Shown here: positions 2,483 to 36,583 of the stretch, piece by piece
Position numbering within the stretch: position 1 is the stretch's first letter
Layout of the letters: each line of letters starts with the position of its first letter
Translations under genes and position numbers: made by a program
IMG/VR virus record: IMGVR_UViG_3300045988_121638
Coordinates: 1 to 37,707 of that record
DNA length: 37,707 nucleotides
Direction: 5' to 3' (one strand)
DNA from: a virus
Notes under the pieces: model-generated
Databases searched by the model: none
What the model saw: only the letters and a program-made list of their open reading frames with translations
Told to the model about the DNA's origin: nothing

Positions 2483-2901
2483 GCTAAGCTCAAGTTTCTT
2501 TCTTTCAATATTGTCCTAATCCTTGACCGATAATCGGCAATCAATATCCGATATTCAGCTTCGGAATACTTCATATAATCATTCTTCATCGATTCCAGCA
2601 ACAATACCTTCTGTTCGCCATACTTCTGAATCAGCCCTCTTCGGTATCCCTGTATATTACCCTCGTCAAACCGGTTACAGCTTCTGCATTGAGCGTTGCA
2701 ATTCATTTCATTATACCTTGTACTCATGTGCTGACGATTGATGTAATGACCACAGTCAGCTTGACTTATCGGCTTAATCAACCCGCATGAGATGCAACGG
2801 AATACGGTTGTCCCCGGTATCATATCGCGAAGCCTGATATATCGGGAAAATTCGGTGTCTGCGGTCCTCTTGAGAGATGCATTATTTGTTTTTTTGAGCA
2901 C
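2467..2901 (-). CDS. ninG: NinG/Rap-family recombination endonuclease
   Basis: 144 aa. ADTEFSRYIRLRD...FRCISCG...DCGHYINRQHMSTRYNEMNCNAQCRSCNRFDEGNIQGY matches the lambda NinG pattern (FS.YIR.RD, CxxC, GH, QCxxCN). GTG start at 2901. Confidence 0.8.
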   Translation of the reverse strand: MLKKTNNASLKRTADTEFSRYIRLRDMIPGTTVFRCISCGLIKPISQADCGHYINRQHMSTRYNEMNCNAQCRSCNRFDEGNIQGYRRGLIQKYGEQKVLLLESMKNDYMKYSEAEYRILIADYRSRIRTILKERNLSLACLTK

Positions 2902-3238
2902 TTCTAAATCTATGTTTGATTATTTTTACAAATTGAGAGAGATTACGGAATCTGATTGCGTGGCTATACCACTCTTCACTACTTGCCTTATAAGGATACT
3001 TTTCAGCTTCCGGCACCCATTCCTTGTCCGCCAGCAGCGCAATGACAGCCAGGTATTCCTTACCGGCATTCCAAAATATTGCAAGGTCTCCGATTTCAGG
3101 AGGGGACTCGGTTTCCCCGGTCAAATCCAATACAAACTCCTTGTTATTGCCTTCAAACAATATGACTATCTTGTTATTCTCCTGCTCTACGGATACTCGT
3201 GCGCATCCGGTAGGAATGGGTATTTCTCTTAATTTCAT
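2882..3238 (-). CDS. hypothetical protein
   Basis: The track ORF 2882..3271 begins with TTG. The first ATG (MKLREIPIPTG...) is at 3238. No motif recognised. Confidence 0.5.
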   Translation of the reverse strand: MKLREIPIPTGCARVSVEQENNKIVILFEGNNKEFVLDLTGETESPPEIGDLAIFWNAGKEYLAVIALLADKEWVPEAEKYPYKASSEEWYSHAIRFRNLSQFVKIIKHRFRSAQKNK

Positions 3239-3325
3239 AATTATTTGCTTTAATGGTTCCCGGATAGGCAATCAAGCCACACCGGGATAAAATGAGTAAC
3301 CTATATGGCATTCAGTTTGAATGCG

Positions 3326-3462
3326 TGGGCGGTACGAGACTTGAACTCGCGGCCTATAGCTTTGCCGAAGAAAAAAAACTTAACTACCAATACCATGAAA
3401 AGAGATTAAAAACACACAACTCTTCGATAACTGCCATCGCTCTACCCCTGAGCTAACCGCCC
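3326..3462 (-). tRNA. tRNA-like gene with canonical acceptor, D and T arms but a 72-nt insert in place of the anticodon loop; anticodon not assignable
   Basis: Minus-strand RNA: GGGCGGT TA GCTC AGGGGTA GAGC G ATGGC [72 nt] GCTAT AGGCC GCGAG TTCAAGT CTCGT ACCGCCC A. U8, A14, G18G19, G53:C61 and the TTCAAGT T-loop are present. No CCA is encoded. Confidence 0.6.
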
Positions 3463-3511
3463 TTGTGCCGCTTCGCCCTCACAGGTTAGACGGCTAAACC
3501 TAAACTAAAAC

Positions 3512-3955
3512 TTATCGTAATTCATCCTTGGATGTACCATCGGAATGGATAATTATATCTTTGAACCGAGTAACCTCTATCTTCAGTATCTTCCAATCGC
3601 CTATAGTTCCTTTCATCCGCTCTGTGATGAGCTCTTTAGCCTGAGACACGTTATCGGCAGACACAATGTGGTTATATCTGCGAATCTTCACCTTACCTTT
3701 CGGAGTGACATCCGATATGCCGATAACGACCTTCCACCACTGTTCCTTGTCAAAACCGGATACTTCTTCAATGACTTCCCGTTTCAAGGTCATAACCTTA
3801 GCTTCTCCATACAGTGGGAAGCAATGCTTAACCAATACATTCTCGGCTTCCGTGAAGCCCATGGCGTCAACCAGGTAAGTATCACTTACCTTTTTCCTCT
3901 TACCATTAGGCAAAGTTGAAGTACCTCTTACCACGCCTGTAAACCATTCTTCCAT
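3512..3955 (-). CDS. DUF4494-like protein
   Basis: 147 aa. MEEWFTGVVRG....GKRKKVSDTYLVDAMGFTEAENVLV resembles the N-terminal signature (WF....Y.K....GK.KKV.E.YLVDA.SFTEAE) I associate with Bacteroidota DUF4494. Confidence 0.6.
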   Translation of the reverse strand: MEEWFTGVVRGTSTLPNGKRKKVSDTYLVDAMGFTEAENVLVKHCFPLYGEAKVMTLKREVIEEVSGFDKEQWWKVVIGISDVTPKGKVKIRRYNHIVSADNVSQAKELITERMKGTIGDWKILKIEVTRFKDIIIHSDGTSKDELR

Positions 3956-4726: not shown

Positions 4727-5127
4727 AATTTGCCCTCCTTGACCCAGTTATAGATAGAATCCACATGATAGATAAAGTCTGAATCGGCAACACCAGCTGA
4801 TAACATCTTAACGATCTCCTTCCTCAACTCAATATCATTACTACTTCTTTGAGAATTTTCTTCTGATGCAATTTTTGCGTCTTTCAGTTCGCTTACACAA
4901 ATCTCTTTGAAACTTGCGCTATAAAAACTATCTATCATAAATCGCACAAGGCCTATCTCGCTACTCTCAAAAATATCCACAAATTCATGAGGGATTCTAT
5001 CAGATATTATGGCATTAAGCCCATTATCCAATTTTACCGCATACGTTCCATCAGGACGCTGTTTCAATGTCAATACATATCTCTTTTCCATTTTCTTAAA
5101 AAGAAAAGCCCTCGCTGTTCTCAGCAT
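4723..5127 (-). CDS. hypothetical protein, first gene of the leftward early operon
   Basis: The track ORF 4723..5154 starts with TTG. ATG candidates are at 5127 and 5091 (MEKRYVLTLKQ...). No motif recognised. Confidence 0.5.
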   Translation of the reverse strand: MLRTARAFLFKKMEKRYVLTLKQRPDGTYAVKLDNGLNAIISDRIPHEFVDIFESSEIGLVRFMIDSFYSASFKEICVSELKDAKIASEENSQRSSNDIELRKEIVKMLSAGVADSDFIYHVDSIYNWVKEGKL

Positions 5128-5154
5128 AATTGGTGTTTGGCTGATACTTAGCAA

Positions 5155-5440
5155 GAGCTTTATTTATGTCCTAAATTACGGTAAACACCACTAAACCGTA
5201 TCGTCTATTTTTTAATCTGATTTTTAGGATATTAAAATGGAAGTCACTATATTTGCCGTTGGAACAATTTTGGTGCGAACAAAATCACGGTTTATACCGT
5301 GACAGCCATTTTTATACCCTTTTGCAACCGATTGTTGATTGGTTACGGATGCAAAGTTAAATGAATATGTATACATAACAAACGTTTTTGAATAAAAGTT
5401 TCGTTGTATTTGTTTATTTAGATTAATTTTAAATAGCATT
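5155..5440. promoter_or_regulatory. divergent intergenic control region between the leftward early operon and the rightward cI-like gene
   Basis: 286 bp with no credible ORF between divergent genes. One plus-strand match to the Bacteroides -7 promoter consensus TAnnTTTG (TATATTTG, 5248..5255). No operators identified. Confidence 0.3.
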
Positions 5441-5839
5441 ATGGAAGAAGAATTAAGGTCTCGATTTAAAGAGGTATTGAATTTTTATAATTCTAATATC
5501 AACCAATTGGCTAACGGAGAAAGCTCTACACAAGTCCGATTGTCTCGTCAAATTAATAAGGGTGCATCTATTACTTATGATACAATAGCCATCCTTCTTG
5601 AAGCCTTCCCGAAAGTGTCTGCCGAATGGTTACTACGAGGTAAAGGAGAGATGATTGTAGCCTCATCGCAAGAGTCGACTGAAAAAGTTAATACTGAAGG
5701 TCTCTTTGGCGATGTATTGTTAGAATTTATTAAGGTTGTAAATAAAAGACTGAGCAGCATAGACAATAATACGGCCCCAGCTGTAGACAAGTTACAAGGC
5801 CTTACAGAGATTCTTTCCGAGTTAAGAAAAACTGCTTAA
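5441..5839 (+). CDS. CI-like HTH repressor
   Basis: 132 aa, one of only two plus-strand coding segments. The N-terminal HTH ends in the motif LLEAFPKVSAEWLLRGKGEM, typical of phage CI-repressor-type HTH domains in Bacteroidota. Divergent from the early operon. Confidence 0.55.
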   Translation: MEEELRSRFKEVLNFYNSNINQLANGESSTQVRLSRQINKGASITYDTIAILLEAFPKVSAEWLLRGKGEMIVASSQESTEKVNTEGLFGDVLLEFIKVVNKRLSSIDNNTAPAVDKLQGLTEILSELRKTA

Positions 5840-5896
5840 TTTATGGAATAATTAAACAATGCATATGTATTATACGTTTATTATGATACTTAAATA

Positions 5897-6826
5897 CTAA
5901 TATCTAAATAATGAACGTATCAATAGACGACTTAAAAAAACTAATGGCTCGTCTGTCTTAATCGTTGTGGTGGTAATATACCCGTCGAAAACGTCAGCTT
6001 TCTTAAGGTTCTTCACATCGGAATATCGCAGGGAGGTGAAGCACTGGAAACAGAATACGTCTTTCGCGATTTCAAGATGAGGCTCATTCGGGAATGATGA
6101 GTTATACACTCTTATTAATTCGTCCCATTCGAGGTATATCACCTTTGATGGAATCGTTTTCAGTTTTTCCTTAAACGTCATAAATGCAAGTTCTTTATTG
6201 ATTCCCTTGTCCGCTGCCCATCTGAGAAACCATTTGGTCAGATTGATATACTTCTTCGCGGTACGGTTCTTCATTCCGACTTCATCATCTATCTCTACGT
6301 TCATCAAGTAGTCAACGAGCTGGGATAATCCTTCGTGTGTGAGGTCTGCAAAGGTAAGATTGGGGGCAAACTTCTTTAAATGGTTCATTGTGGTTTTGTG
6401 CCTCTTATATGTATTCTCGGACCAGCTGTTTTCTTTACCCTGTTCCGTAATGAATTGCATATAGTAATCGAAGATGGTTTTTTCTTCTTTTTCTACGATT
6501 CTCCCATTCCTTCTATTGACTTCATTCCGAAATTCATCTGTGGAGGGTATATGCTCGGTTTGTTCGAAAAAGAAGAAGGCGTCATTAATCAGCTCTTCGA
6601 ATCGGTTTATCTCGGCATTAATGGTCGATGCCGGTACCTTTTTCTTACCATGGGTAGTGTTTACCTTGCATCGCTGGGCTTCTGCTACCCATTTGTTGTT
6701 GTCTACTCGATAGCCAATATTGAAGGCTACTGTGTTGCCGTTCCACTTAATCCTATATCGGAGTTTGGAATCGGGCTTGCCTTTCTCCTTGTCCAAGAGA
6801 AAGGTAGTTGTTCGTTTGATGTTCAT
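5897..6826 (-). pseudogene. int: N-terminal ~295 aa of a Bacteroides-type tyrosine integrase, truncated by inversion
   Basis: MNIKRTTTFLLDKEKGKPDSKLRYRIKWNG... (arm-binding N-domain), a SAM-like core-binding domain and the first catalytic Arg in CFTSLRYSD. Similarity stops after ...TIKTDEPL at 5942, followed by 14 unrelated codons and a stop. Confidence 0.8.
5942..5949. repeat. left copy of the 8-bp inverted repeat at the inversion breakpoint (TAATGGCT)
   Basis: Reverse complement of 7887..7894. It sits beside a local 6-bp inverted repeat AGACGA (5925..5930) / TCGTCT (5949..5954). Confidence 0.6.
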
Positions 6827-6834
6827 TGGGTAAA

Positions 6835-7749
6835 TTATTTAATGTTTGCTAGTGAGAAGAAAAACACTTCTGACTTTTGGTTTTCTGATGATATTGTTAT
6901 TGAATAAAATGTATCCTTTGATGAATTATTATGAGGCAAACATTTGATGGAGAATGTTTTTTTATGATTAAATTCATATAAAGAATAGTCTATATGTGTT
7001 TTAAGAAGAGAGGATAGGTAAAATTCGTATAATAAATGTCCATTCTTGTATATCCTAAAGCATTTATCTGAAATATCTACATAATTATTTTTATTAGATA
7101 GTATAGATGTGAAAGAAGTAAGTAATTTAGTCCCATCATATAAACCATATCCAAGTAAATAGAACTGTCCAAAAGGGAGCGAAATATTATTTAGATTTAC
7201 TGGTCTGTTGATCAAACTAGAATAAGATTGTGATTCTTTAATTTTTGCTTGATTCATTGTTGATATACTTCCGTCCATATATTGAATTTTTATAGAGGTA
7301 GGAATAAATTCTTCTATAGTAGAGTCATACCATACATTACTAAAGGTTTCGTTTCTATATTGCATAAATTTAATAGGGCCAGTAACCTTACAAATCGTAT
7401 TAGAATGTTTCCTAATATGGCAAAAACACTTATCTCCAACAGCATTGATAGGATAGCCATTTATATAAATATATTTGATGTCTTTATTTACAATATTCAT
7501 TCCTGAAAACGATAAATCAACCCCTCCACAGGAATCAATGGATTTTATATTTATTGCATTGACAATAAGAGGAATTTTGTTTTTTATTTTATTGATGATA
7601 GATGTATGCGATAAAGCATCCAATGTTGAGAGATAATCCTTTTTAAGAAAAGAACTATCTCTACTAATGTAGGGCTTAATGCTATCATTTTGCGAATAAG
7701 AAGTCGTAGAAATTAATAATAGTAATAATGCAATTAAAACATTTTTCAT
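6835..7749 (-). CDS. exported protein of unknown function (AT-rich cargo gene)
   Basis: 304 aa with an N-terminal signal peptide MKNVLIALLLLLISTTSYSQ (no lipobox Cys). Asn/Ile/Lys/Ser-rich. The DNA is visibly more AT-rich than the flanking phage genes. Confidence 0.65.
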   Translation of the reverse strand: MKNVLIALLLLLISTTSYSQNDSIKPYISRDSSFLKKDYLSTLDALSHTSIINKIKNKIPLIVNAINIKSIDSCGGVDLSFSGMNIVNKDIKYIYINGYPINAVGDKCFCHIRKHSNTICKVTGPIKFMQYRNETFSNVWYDSTIEEFIPTSIKIQYMDGSISTMNQAKIKESQSYSSLINRPVNLNNISLPFGQFYLLGYGLYDGTKLLTSFTSILSNKNNYVDISDKCFRIYKNGHLLYEFYLSSLLKTHIDYSLYEFNHKKTFSIKCLPHNNSSKDTFYSITISSENQKSEVFFFSLANIK

Positions 7750-7882
7750 GATTGATGATCTTGATAATTTTTTTTTAAATTGAAATATTTCTTAGAAGTC
7801 TTGCGACCATTACATATAATAAGAGTGAGATGTGTATATTTTTTCTTAATGTGTTCATCTTGGCTGTATGATTCTTCTTTAA

Positions 7883-8272
7883 GCTCAGCCATTAAAGATA
7901 GAGCTTAATAAGTACTCTAAAACCATATTGGACAAATACAAGGACATAAAGGGTATCTATGCGCTTCCTGTCCCTGTCAACCAACGGATGAACAAGTATA
8001 TAAAAGAAGTATGTGCAGTCTGCGAAGTCAATGAACCGGTGTGCATAACCTATTACAAGGGTTCGGAAAGAATAGATGAGATACATCCCAAACACGAATT
8101 AATCGGCACACATTGCGGAAGGAAAACCTTTATATGCAACGCGCTCATGCTAGGCATCGCGCCTAATATTGTGATGAAATGGACAGGCCACAGAGATTAC
8201 AAGTCCATGAAACCCTATATTGACATAGCAGACAAAGTAAAACAGGAAGCTATGACTCTCTTTAATCGTTAG
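7883..8272 (+). pseudogene. int: C-terminal ~125 aa of the same tyrosine integrase, on the opposite strand
   Basis: The frame is open from 7883. ...PLKIELNKYSKTILDKYKDIKGIYALPVPVNQRMNKYIKE...IGTHCGRKTF...MKWTGHRDYKSMKPYI carries the HxxR and H...Y catalytic residues. The track ORF 7928..8272 starts at an internal TTG. Confidence 0.8.
7887..7894. repeat. right copy of the 8-bp inverted repeat at the inversion breakpoint (AGCCATTA)
   Basis: Reverse complement of 5942..5949. It lies directly after the left arm of a local 8-bp inverted repeat TTAAGCTC (7879..7886) / GAGCTTAA (7901..7908). Confidence 0.6.
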
Positions 8273-35662: not shown

Positions 35663-36583
35663 TTATTTAATTTTTAAAAAGTTGCTCATTCGCTCAATGC
35701 ATCTTTGTTTCTGATTGAGATTGGGATGCACATATAAATTGAGTGTGGTAGCGATATTCGAATGTCCAAGAATTACACTCACTGTCTTATAATCGCATTG
35801 ACTTTCAATGCATCTGGTAGCAAATGTATGCCGGAGTCCATGAAACACAATGTGCGGAATATTCAGACGCTTCAAGAGCCGGGCAAAGAAATCACGGTAA
35901 GAACGGGGATCTTCCGGACGTTCTGATGTTCCTACTACAAATCGGGACGGAGATATTTTCTTTACTTCCTTCAAGGCAAAGAGAAGCTGTCTTGAGATAG
36001 GTATCTCCCGGTATGAATTTCGTGTTTTGGGAGAAGTGAAAGTCCTTTCCGTAGTTCTTGATTCGCAGTTGTATATCCTTCCTGCTGTATAACTAATGGT
36101 GATTACCTTCTGTCTGAAATCCACATCTTCCCATCGCAGGGCACACACCTCTCCAATCCTCATGCCGGTACACAGAGACAGCAGAATGCCTATATTCTTA
36201 GGAGTTGGGGATTCGGTGAGATGGCTCATCAGTATCTGTTGATGGTTTAAGGACAAAGTAGGCAAACGGTGAGATTCGGTATCTGTAGGATAGTTTATCT
36301 CCCACTCCTCATAAGGGAATAACTTATGTTTCCCACCATACTTGACTATAGATTTCAGCACCGCCACAATATCCCTTACGGTTTTTTTAGCAAGACCAGA
36401 GGAAAGCTTGTCGAGAACAAATTTCTGAACGTCGCTTTCCGATATAGCTGTCGCCGTCCCAAAATATGGGAGTAAATGGGTTTGAAGGGTAAGCATATAC
36501 GCACACATCGTGGCATGCTTTATAATAGGTTGCTTCGCAGCACTCCAAATCCTGGCGACTTCTTGAAATGTTTTAGTATTCAT
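35663..36583 (-). CDS. tyrosine recombinase (XerC/D-like site-specific integrase), intact
   Basis: 306 aa. The full catalytic set is visible: GMRIGEVCALRWEDV (R), HGLRHTFAT (HxxR), LGHSNIATTLNLYVH (H...Y). Confidence 0.85.
   Translation of the reverse strand: MNTKTFQEVARIWSAAKQPIIKHATMCAYMLTLQTHLLPYFGTATAISESDVQKFVLDKLSSGLAKKTVRDIVAVLKSIVKYGGKHKLFPYEEWEINYPTDTESHRLPTLSLNHQQILMSHLTESPTPKNIGILLSLCTGMRIGEVCALRWEDVDFRQKVITISYTAGRIYNCESRTTERTFTSPKTRNSYREIPISRQLLFALKEVKKISPSRFVVGTSERPEDPRSYRDFFARLLKRLNIPHIVFHGLRHTFATRCIESQCDYKTVSVILGHSNIATTLNLYVHPNLNQKQRCIERMSNFLKIK

Follow-up and report, generated by a model that had tools for sequence, protein, structure and literature searches.

A tRNA-shaped RNA with an extended anticodon arm forms a small cassette in a family of temperate phages of the human gut

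The locus and its tRNA scaffold

We analysed a stretch of viral DNA of 37,707 nucleotides (nt) (IMG/VR record IMGVR_UViG_3300045988_121638, positions 1 to 37,707; hereafter the window) and found on its minus strand, at 3326..3462, a 137-nt RNA element with the shape of a transfer RNA (tRNA) in which 72 nt take up the position of the anticodon loop. Almost every gene of the window, which is a tailed phage or prophage, lies on the minus strand, and the window encodes the small and large terminase, portal, protease, major head protein, tail and tape-measure proteins and a lysis region, together with the anti-repressor Ant, NinG, an HNH endonuclease, a PAPS-reductase-like protein and tyrosine recombinases. 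The element is flanked by a DUF4494 gene (3955..3512) on one side and, on the other, by an open reading frame (ORF) of 118 amino acids (aa) (3238..2882) that is followed by NinG. We conclude that this is a functional gene for a tRNA-shaped RNA, and that a human-gut family of temperate tailed phages or prophages carries it as a small mobile cassette.

Read on the minus strand, 3462..3326 is GGGCGGT-TA-GCTC-AGGGGTA-GAGC-G-ATGGC-(72 nt, 3432..3361)-GCTAT-AGGCC-GCGAG-TTCAAGT-CTCGT-ACCGCCC-A. The 5' half (3433..3462) consists of the acceptor strand, U8 and A9, the D arm, G26 and the first strand of the anticodon stem, and the 3' half (3326..3360) of the second anticodon-stem strand, a five-base variable loop, the T arm, the returning acceptor strand and the discriminator A. 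The anticodon stem ATGGC/GCTAT, which includes one G-U pair, thus closes over 72 nt rather than 7. Upon comparison with Rfam, the tRNA model RF00005 aligned over all of its 71 positions with a score of 45.9 bits, against a gathering score of 29 (E = 8e-07 for the whole window), and with a single 72-nt insertion in place of the 7-nt anticodon loop, which bears out the first-pass annotation of this DNA as to the scaffold and its interruption. This was the sole Rfam match in the whole window, and a sensitive scan of 3150..3560 returned nothing credible beyond the tRNA and no group I intron, ribozyme or transfer-messenger RNA (tmRNA).

The nucleotides that form tertiary contacts are all canonical (U8, A14, G15:C48, G18G19, G26:A44, the T-loop and G53:C61), the discriminator A73 is invariant in the family described below, and CCA is not encoded. 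The element therefore has the complete cloverleaf of a canonical tRNA with its stems, D and T arms and tertiary nucleotides, and it also has, as conserved features, the structure of an RNase P and RNase Z substrate, namely the coaxial helix of acceptor and T arm, an intact elbow and the discriminator. It does not have a 7-nt anticodon loop with U33 and an assignable anticodon. ARAGORN in its default mode found no tRNA and no tmRNA in the entire window, and in its intron mode it forced a tRNA-Cys(GCA) with a 65-nt intron at the non-canonical position 31/32 and with G33, a call that we do not consider credible. Neither ARAGORN nor Rfam found a second tRNA in the window.

Conservation, covariation and cassette organisation

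We scanned IMG/VR, a metagenome collection and GTDB genomes with exact and gapped patterns made from each half of the tRNA and from its stems, and also searched by way of the neighbouring protein. About 60 metagenomic contigs of phages or prophages proved to carry the interrupted tRNA, and their copies group into five sequence types (A, B, C, E and F). Human gut metagenomes are the source of the related contigs, some of which are 96-329 kb long, a length that indicates integrated prophages. Type A comprises the window and its close relatives, with inserts of 70-73 nt (72 here) and 88-100% identity in the adjacent DUF4494 protein. In type B (L028 and others) the insert is 74 nt and the DUF4494 identity 65%, in type C (L046-48, L084) they are 88 nt and 53%, and in type E (L061-L097, L102) 69-74 nt and approximately 49%. 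Type F (L098, L099) has an insert of 57 nt, lies at a different locus and was recovered only with a covariance model built in this analysis. The family covariance model built here (R1) gives 152.4 bits for the copy at 3326..3462, and the type B copy scores 50.1 bits against the Rfam tRNA model. A description of such an RNA family was found neither in Rfam nor in the literature searched.

The interruption is a constant feature of the family. The first-pass annotation had proposed a search for relatives with an uninterrupted tRNA; in IMG/VR, the metagenome collection and the GTDB representative genomes we found no such allele, only interrupted copies or unrelated normal tRNAs, and in the pattern scans the borders of the insert occurred only within the tRNA scaffold, so that a mobile insert with copies elsewhere was rejected. 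Flanking proteins share only 46-65% identity among the sequence types. Between types, identity is 72-88% for the exons, 63-71% for the adjacent coding DNA in most pairs, and 54-72% for the insert.

Next, we examined whether the proposed pairs are maintained when the sequence changes. In 12 sequences of four types aligned with MAFFT, 98.1% of the cells of the proposed pairs are paired, in comparison to 38-45% when the partners are slid by 1-3 columns; 11 of the 26 pairs have changed on both sides, and none of 500 shuffles reaches the observed covariation score. The corresponding values for 26 distinct sequences of five types, over the cloverleaf and a 5-bp (base-pair) helix within the insert, are 98.7% versus 37-44%, with changes on both sides in 13 of 26 pairs and again 0 of 500 shuffles at the observed score; this alignment was fitted to the structure model, which inflates the paired percentage somewhat, a bias that the 12-sequence MAFFT count does not have. 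The two-sided changes are spread over the acceptor stem (four), the D stem (one), the anticodon stem (three), the inner helix (three of its five pairs) and the T stem (two). For instance, the acceptor stem occurs as GGGCGGT/ACCGCCC, GGAAGCT/AGCTTCC, GGGGGCT/AGCTCCC and GGGTAAT/ATTGCCC, and the anticodon stem as ATGGC/GCTAT, GTAGC/GCTAC and GTGAC/GTCAC. The G-U pairs of the stems form on the minus-strand RNA only, indicating that selection acts on that RNA. Judged by sequence comparison, the recurrence of this architecture in about 60 contigs and five types with compensatory changes is far more than chance would give.

The insert itself has an anatomy that is shared by all five types. It has 31% G+C and 49% T, and when folded by itself it is no more stable than shuffled sequence (z = -0.34). 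From the anticodon stem inward, the order in every type is a 5' loop A-N-U-U-R-N, a covarying helix of 3-5 bp, a distal loop, the return strand and a 3' loop N-C/A-A-W-A. In the window copy the 5' internal loop is AGUUAU (3427..3432), corresponding to tRNA positions 32-37, and the other types have AGUUAA, AGUUGA or AUUUAU. The 3' internal loop is GCAAA (3361..3365), of which the C can pair with G33 and the last A is tRNA position 38. In tRNA numbering A32, U34, U35 and A38 are invariant across the five types, with A32, U34 and U35 in the 5' loop, and position 36 is A in four of them. The earlier statement that every joined 7-nt loop would have G at position 33 holds for this copy and for 25 of the 26 distinct copies, and fails in type F (L098/L099), which has U.

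Between these loops lies the inner helix CGAAGAG/TTCTTCG (3426..3420 / 3372..3366), found at the positions first described. Its five inner pairs, formed by CGAAG (3422..3426) and CTTCG (3366..3370), are supported by covariation in the relatives, with 96% of cells paired in the 26 sequences, and the outer two pairs are specific to type A. Elsewhere in the family the helix is formed by CGGUC with GGCCG, GAUCG or GACCG, or by GGUA/UGCC; all three return strands opposite CGGUC occur within type E, and pairing is always kept. The distal loop (3371..3421, 51 nt) is U/G-rich and contains the core UUCAUGGU (with CATGGT at 3397..3392) and a run of eight T (3378..3371); across the family it measures 35-70 nt and keeps a semi-conserved core UUC(C)AUGRU, which in type F is UUCUAUAA. 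Taken together, the comparison of types indicates that the extension is a selected part of the anticodon arm and not damage.

The T8 run (3371..3378, minus strand) ranges from T6 to T9 among nearly identical phages of different samples, reflecting either slippage-prone DNA or assembly noise. This variation implies that no reading frame is conserved through the insert, and a small ORF starting at the AUG of the distal loop was rejected on these grounds, since in addition the frame differs in type B and type F has no AUG. Antisense control of the downstream gene start was likewise discarded, as the complementarity is weak in types A, B and C and the insert of type E remains constant while the downstream gene varies.

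When the surroundings of the element are compared, a fixed order emerges of leader, hairpin capped by a GNRA tetraloop, tRNA-like RNA and second hairpin, all on the minus strand here. The leader GTTTTAGTTTAGGTTTA (3495..3511) directly follows the TAA stop of the DUF4494 gene, and it is conserved across types even with a different upstream gene, its family form being (TAGGTTTTAG)TTTAGGTTT(T)AG. The upstream hairpin (3467..3494) has two tiers, GCCG..CCU-GUGA-GGG..CGGC, with the GNRA tetraloop GUGA, and ends 4 nt before the 5' end of the tRNA-like RNA; its distance is the same in all five types, and its outer stem takes the forms GCCG/CGGC, GCCGG/CCGGC and GUCGG/CCGGC. The downstream hairpin GCATTCA-AAC-TGAATGC (3308..3324) starts 1 nt past the discriminator, has 6-7 bp in the family and covaries, with GCAUUC/GAAUGC in types A and B versus AACUUC/GAAGUU, followed by a U-run, in type E. 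Both hairpins thus keep fixed distances from the two ends of the tRNA-like RNA in all types. The core of the cassette also occurs behind an unrelated 290-aa gene in L102, where the motifs further downstream are missing, and at a second locus in L098/L099 (type F); its presence behind unrelated genes marks it as a self-contained, portable module. By eye, the leader resembles the Bacteroides -7 promoter box TAnnTTTG, with a perfect match (TAGGTTTG) only in type C, and it would be a candidate promoter. A scan of the element strand found no intrinsic terminator and no sigma-70 promoter, the scanning tool being one that models sigma-70 and not Bacteroidota promoters.

A further lineage, D (L031, L098, L100, L101), carries a reduced tRNA-like element followed by a hairpin at the syntenic site after DUF4494 (L031:4513-4590, L098:3545-3625). 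It is built of a 7-bp acceptor-like stem, a D-like hairpin of 3 bp, a short arm closed by a 9-nt loop and a canonical T arm CGGG-UUCGAAU-CCCG, and has no long arm. Its acceptor covaries at 1:72 (U.G or U-A), and neither Rfam nor ARAGORN matched it. Because this lineage keeps the acceptor and the T arm without the long arm, the part that persists would be a handle of the RNase P/RNase Z type and not an anticodon.

Possible roles of the interrupted tRNA

Of the three options offered in the first-pass annotation, an unclassified intervening sequence and a tRNA-like RNA with an extended arm both survive the comparison and a dead gene does not, and it is the second that we favour. Our tentative reading is that the element is a non-decoding tRNA-derived RNA which is excised by RNase P and RNase Z and whose extended arm binds some partner. 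Its transcription would either be part of that of the early or middle genes or start at the promoter-like leader, and the RNA would fold into the normal L-shape of a tRNA, given that all tertiary-contact nucleotides are canonical. RNase P and RNase Z need the acceptor/T-arm helix and the elbow of their substrates and do not require the anticodon arm. The host RNase P would thus cut the 5' end and RNase Z would cut after A73, leaving an upstream RNA that ends in the GNRA-capped hairpin and a downstream mRNA that begins with a hairpin, and the two hairpins would stabilise these ends. The released tRNA-shaped RNA of 120-155 nt would then serve both as a processing 'punctuation' module and as a stable RNA with a presumed partner-binding arm.

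The processing enzymes, the effects on stability and the non-decoding role are what we infer from these features. With no usable anticodon loop, the released RNA would not decode, and the would-be anticodon differs among the types, being UUG in type C and UUA in the other four. Of the 58 ORFs in the window, 33 end in TAA, which is thus the commonest stop codon, so the phage does not appear adapted to an ochre-reading tRNA, and we rejected ochre suppression as an adaptation of this phage for that reason. The persistence of the core UUCAUGRU in the distal loop is also unexpected for an intron that is discarded. By analogy, the element would work in the manner of tRNA punctuation, mascRNA of MALAT1 and the TMER tRNA-like/miRNA genes of gammaherpesvirus 68, as a tRNA-shaped, non-decoding module of a longer transcript that RNase P and RNase Z could release, giving the RNAs on either side defined ends. 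Those processing handles are eukaryotic, organellar or animal-virus examples, and none of them has a conserved anticodon-arm extension of 57-88 nt or this flanking pair of hairpins.

Several points weigh against this reading. Cleavage by RNase P and RNase Z and the effects on stability are deduced from geometry and general knowledge of the enzymes, and a pure processing signal leaves the retention of the extension and of the invariant A32, U34, U35 and A38 unexplained. The search for a binding partner or antisense target yielded none, the antisense search, which was limited to the window, finding no complementary site of 15/18 there. The loop bases that never vary resemble the 5' portion of an anticodon loop; a relaxed bulge-helix-bulge, which can be drawn for four of the five types, sets the canonical 37/38 splice sites in 3-nt bulges, as an intron would; and type F has U33, so that a nearly canonical loop AUUUAUA would result. 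There are only about five independent lineages, and the covariation signals therefore rest on few events. The fold of the type D element is no more stable than shuffled sequence (z = -0.62). Lastly, DUF4494 is a frequent and not an obligatory neighbour, and its predicted fold has no informative match.

The principal alternative, which we consider possible yet rather unlikely, is a true tRNA gene that is interrupted at the canonical position 37/38 by a small intron of a new, protein-spliced kind. An endonuclease of host or phage would cut both bulges and a ligase such as the host RtcB would join the halves, giving a product of 72-73 nt with the loop A-N-U-U-A-N-A and the ochre-reading anticodon UUA, or UUG (Gln) in type C; the ligated junction would read ...GATGGCAGTTAT/AGCTATAGG... 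or lie one nt off, with ...GCGATGGCAGTTAT/AGCTATAGG... for 37/38 and ...GCGATGGCAGTTA/AAGCTATAGG... for 36/37. The exact placement of the insert in the anticodon loop of a fully canonical scaffold, the invariance of A32, U34, U35 and A38 over five types and the A at position 36 in four of them are all in its favour, and suppressor tRNAs are frequent in Bacteroidota phages even without recoding. An alternative register is moreover 97% paired, in which position 33 pairs with the base four before the stem return and U34 and U35 each pair with G, and it contains one compensatory event, G33:C in 25 sequences and U33:A in type F. The first-pass annotation saw no bulge-helix-bulge motif, and a strict scan agrees with it, finding no such motif at a common position in four types. 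In types A, B, E and F a relaxed version can nevertheless be drawn. Beyond the anticodon stem, A32 faces a 3-nt bulge (A-A-A) on the 3' side; a central helix of 3 bp follows, then a second 3-nt bulge, on the 5' side, and finally a helix of 4 bp or more, so that both canonical 37/38 splice positions fall in the opposed bulges. As in archaeal and eukaryal pre-tRNAs, the insert then sits at the canonical site with a helix right after the loop. Unlike in those, the central helix has 3 bp and not 4, two of them G.U, with the extra unpaired base A32; it competes with a C-G pair of the inner helix and cannot be drawn for type C, so that we regard this register as suggestive only. To our knowledge no tRNA-splicing endonuclease, of the EndA type or otherwise, is known in bacteria, and neither such an endonuclease nor a ligase was found among the window ORFs, where we also found no reverse transcriptase. 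The G33 of 25 of the 26 copies would disrupt the U-turn, U33 being near-universal in elongator tRNAs. The use of TAA as the commonest stop, the difference in anticodon between orthologues and the absence of the long arm from lineage D also speak against splicing, and we know of no report of ochre reassignment in phages. The isotype cannot be assigned, and BLAST of intron-less constructs against phage and Escherichia coli tRNAs gave a mixture of Val, Trp, Met, Gly, Ile and Lys at 74-79% identity. A precedent exists in the Lak megaphages of Prevotella, where 'enigmatic' AU-rich tRNA introns of 79-114 nt at or next to position 37, without an Rfam class and with sequences highly conserved between samples, interrupt canonical C32-U33 loops with the real anticodons GTA, GAA and TGT and have a T-arm-like GGTTCGAATCC minihelix of their own (Devoto et al. 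2019, PMC6784885, Supplementary Table 6). The two share a phage of a Bacteroidota host (here by inference) and an AU-rich insert of tens of nt at or near position 37 of a good tRNA. They differ in that the loop here is A32-G33-U-U-A without an assignable anticodon, the ends of the insert pair with each other, a hairpin like GGTTCGAATCC is absent, and the carrier is a 38-kb temperate siphovirus without any other tRNA, so the element does not belong to the Lak type of intron. The fuller version of this alternative, in which these are real tRNA genes whose small enzyme-spliced introns form a class hitherto unknown in a bacterial system, with a relaxed bulge-helix-bulge recognised by an endonuclease of the Bacteroidota or the phage, sealing by a host ligase and a UAA-reading product, seems to us doubtful.

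Three other explanations were weighed against the non-decoding RNA. A tRNA-shaped decoy could mimic a tRNA with U34-U35 (the Lys/Gln/Glu group) and titrate or inhibit a tRNA-targeting defence nuclease or tRNA-modifying enzyme of the host, being itself unable to enter translation. Defences that target tRNAs include PrrC, RloC, PARIS and Retron-PtuAB, and both tRNA-cleaving defences and phage tRNAs that evade them are established; the canonical L-shape scaffold, the invariant U34 and U35 at a normal distance from the elbow and the position among the early genes of a temperate phage, a frequent place for anti-defence genes, would all suit such a role. As no link to a defence gene was seen in the loci examined, as no isotype can be assigned and as type D has no mimic arm, we judge it improbable. 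That a small insertion killed the tRNA gene, which now decays neutrally, was the option preferred in the first-pass annotation, and the lack of a usable anticodon loop, the rejection by ARAGORN in its default mode and the length-variable homopolymer in the distal loop are compatible with it. The interruption is, however, kept in five types with compensatory changes in every helix including that of the insert (13 of 26 pairs, with 98.7% of cells paired), the exons are more conserved than the neighbouring coding DNA, and no uninterrupted allele was seen in any collection searched; the 46-65% identity of the flanking proteins also argues against a single recent recombinant spread. Covariation in every helix and retention in diverged lineages lead us to reject the pseudogene, to which we give hardly any credence. 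Just as remote is the idea that what is conserved is a site in the DNA, for instance an attachment site, an origin or an array bound by proteins, and that its likeness to a tRNA is accidental. Phage attachment sites often overlap tRNA genes, the window has integrase genes and the cassette moves between genomic contexts; against this, the stems are kept through G-U intermediates that pair only in the minus-strand RNA, the element lies in the early gene array at 2.4 kb and 32 kb from the integrase genes, and both halves of the tRNA are present and not just the 3' portion as in attP.

Further RNA classes share single traits with the element. The anticodon loop is also interrupted in the bacterial tRNAs with group I introns (such as tRNA-Leu UAA, tRNA-fMet and tRNA-Ile in Azoarcus). 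Group I introns have at least about 200 nt and a P1-P9 catalytic core; the inserts here are 57-88 nt with an unstructured interior, and there was no Intron_gpI match at the gathering score or even at E up to 10, so that this class is rejected, as the first-pass annotation already had it. The tRNA-like domain of tmRNA and the bacterial Y-RNA YrlA likewise mimic a tRNA with the anticodon arm replaced by another RNA element. tmRNA needs G3:U70, is without a D stem and carries a tag reading frame and pseudoknots. In the family, 3:70 is G-C or A-U, the D arm is canonical, no reading frame is conserved and ARAGORN reports no tmRNA; the match of type C to the Rfam tmRNA model is only a 13.7-bit fragment of the T arm, and tmRNA is rejected too. 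YrlA has a closed acceptor end and its 5' and 3' ends in the Ro-binding stem, which is the opposite topology.

Bacterial and phage tRNA genes are taken as uninterrupted apart from group I introns. The only reported exceptions are the still unexplained introns of the Lak megaphages, and the theme recurs here in small temperate phages found commonly in human gut metagenomes, with a diversity that suffices to show that the interrupted form is under selection. Without splicing, the element would define a new family of phage RNAs that derive from tRNAs and do not decode, along with a portable cassette for processing. With splicing, bacteria or their phages would possess a protein-based route for splicing tRNAs that has so far been overlooked, amounting to splicing of the archaeal and eukaryal style in bacteria and to an ochre suppressor deployed by temperate gut phages. 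In either case, standard tRNA finders silently skip such genes, as the family model shows. Lysogens in culturable gut Bacteroidota should exist.

Phage context and further features of the locus

The host is probably a member of the Bacteroidota, as judged from the gut source and from the Pfam families DUF4494 and Phage_int_SAM_5 in the window and DUF3853 and DUF3127 in relatives, which we take to be typical of that phylum. Two scans of GTDB representative genomes with patterns of the element gave no match, and neither the region nor a 12.5-kb structural module had a BLAST match among 50,697 phage records that would point to a cultured relative. No RNA ligase was found among the window ORFs. 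The AlphaFold2 model of the DUF4494 protein (3512..3955; pLDDT 84.8, the model's per-residue confidence measure) has two similar beta-beta-alpha-beta units. Its best Foldseek matches in the PDB are the eukaryotic ribosomal protein eL20 and 2qsd, a protein without known function (structural-alignment TM score at most 0.37), and no sequence relatives were found in the PDB. Since these fold matches are uninformative and the cassette also stands behind an unrelated gene, a functional tie between the RNA and DUF4494 was not retained.

Downstream of the cassette, a hairpin TCCCGG-TGT-GGC-TTGATT-GCC-TAT-CCGGGA(AC) at 3256..3287 of the minus strand lies approximately 18 nt upstream of the start codon (ATG at 3238) of the 118-aa ORF. 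Types A-E share it almost unchanged, despite flanking proteins of about 50% identity and a variable downstream gene, its inner stem has a compensatory change in L031 (GGC/GCC to GCU/GGC), and it is absent from L102. It could be a regulator-binding or antitermination-type RNA site. In types C, D and E an extra module of two hairpins (e.g. GCCGCUAUUAAAGGGUAGCGUGAGGUGCGAGUCCUC), absent from the window, lies between the tRNA-like RNA and the TCCCGG hairpin (L046:1355-1400, L031:4615-4655 and L062). Its first hairpin covaries (GCAC/GUGC, GCUG/CAGC, GUAC/GUAC, CGCUG/CGGCG), and the loop AAAGGA of that hairpin could instead pair with the CCUC strand of the second. The module matched nothing in Rfam and is possibly a cis-regulatory RNA that has not been described before.

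In some type E phages (L061, L066, L068, L069) a gene for a Dam-like DNA methyltransferase (N-terminus MNYGMPYMGSKSKIAEW...) is found between the cassette and the 118-aa and NinG genes, and the recombination boundary in these four contigs lies directly after the TCCCGG hairpin. The window also contains an AT-rich island at approximately 5000..8000, with a guanine plus cytosine content of 0.29-0.39 in comparison to about 0.43 elsewhere. Within this island, in the early region of the phage, two tyrosine-recombinase-like ORFs lie side by side (5897..6826 and 6835..7749), and the island is probably a nested mobile element; a third integrase is located at 35663..36583.

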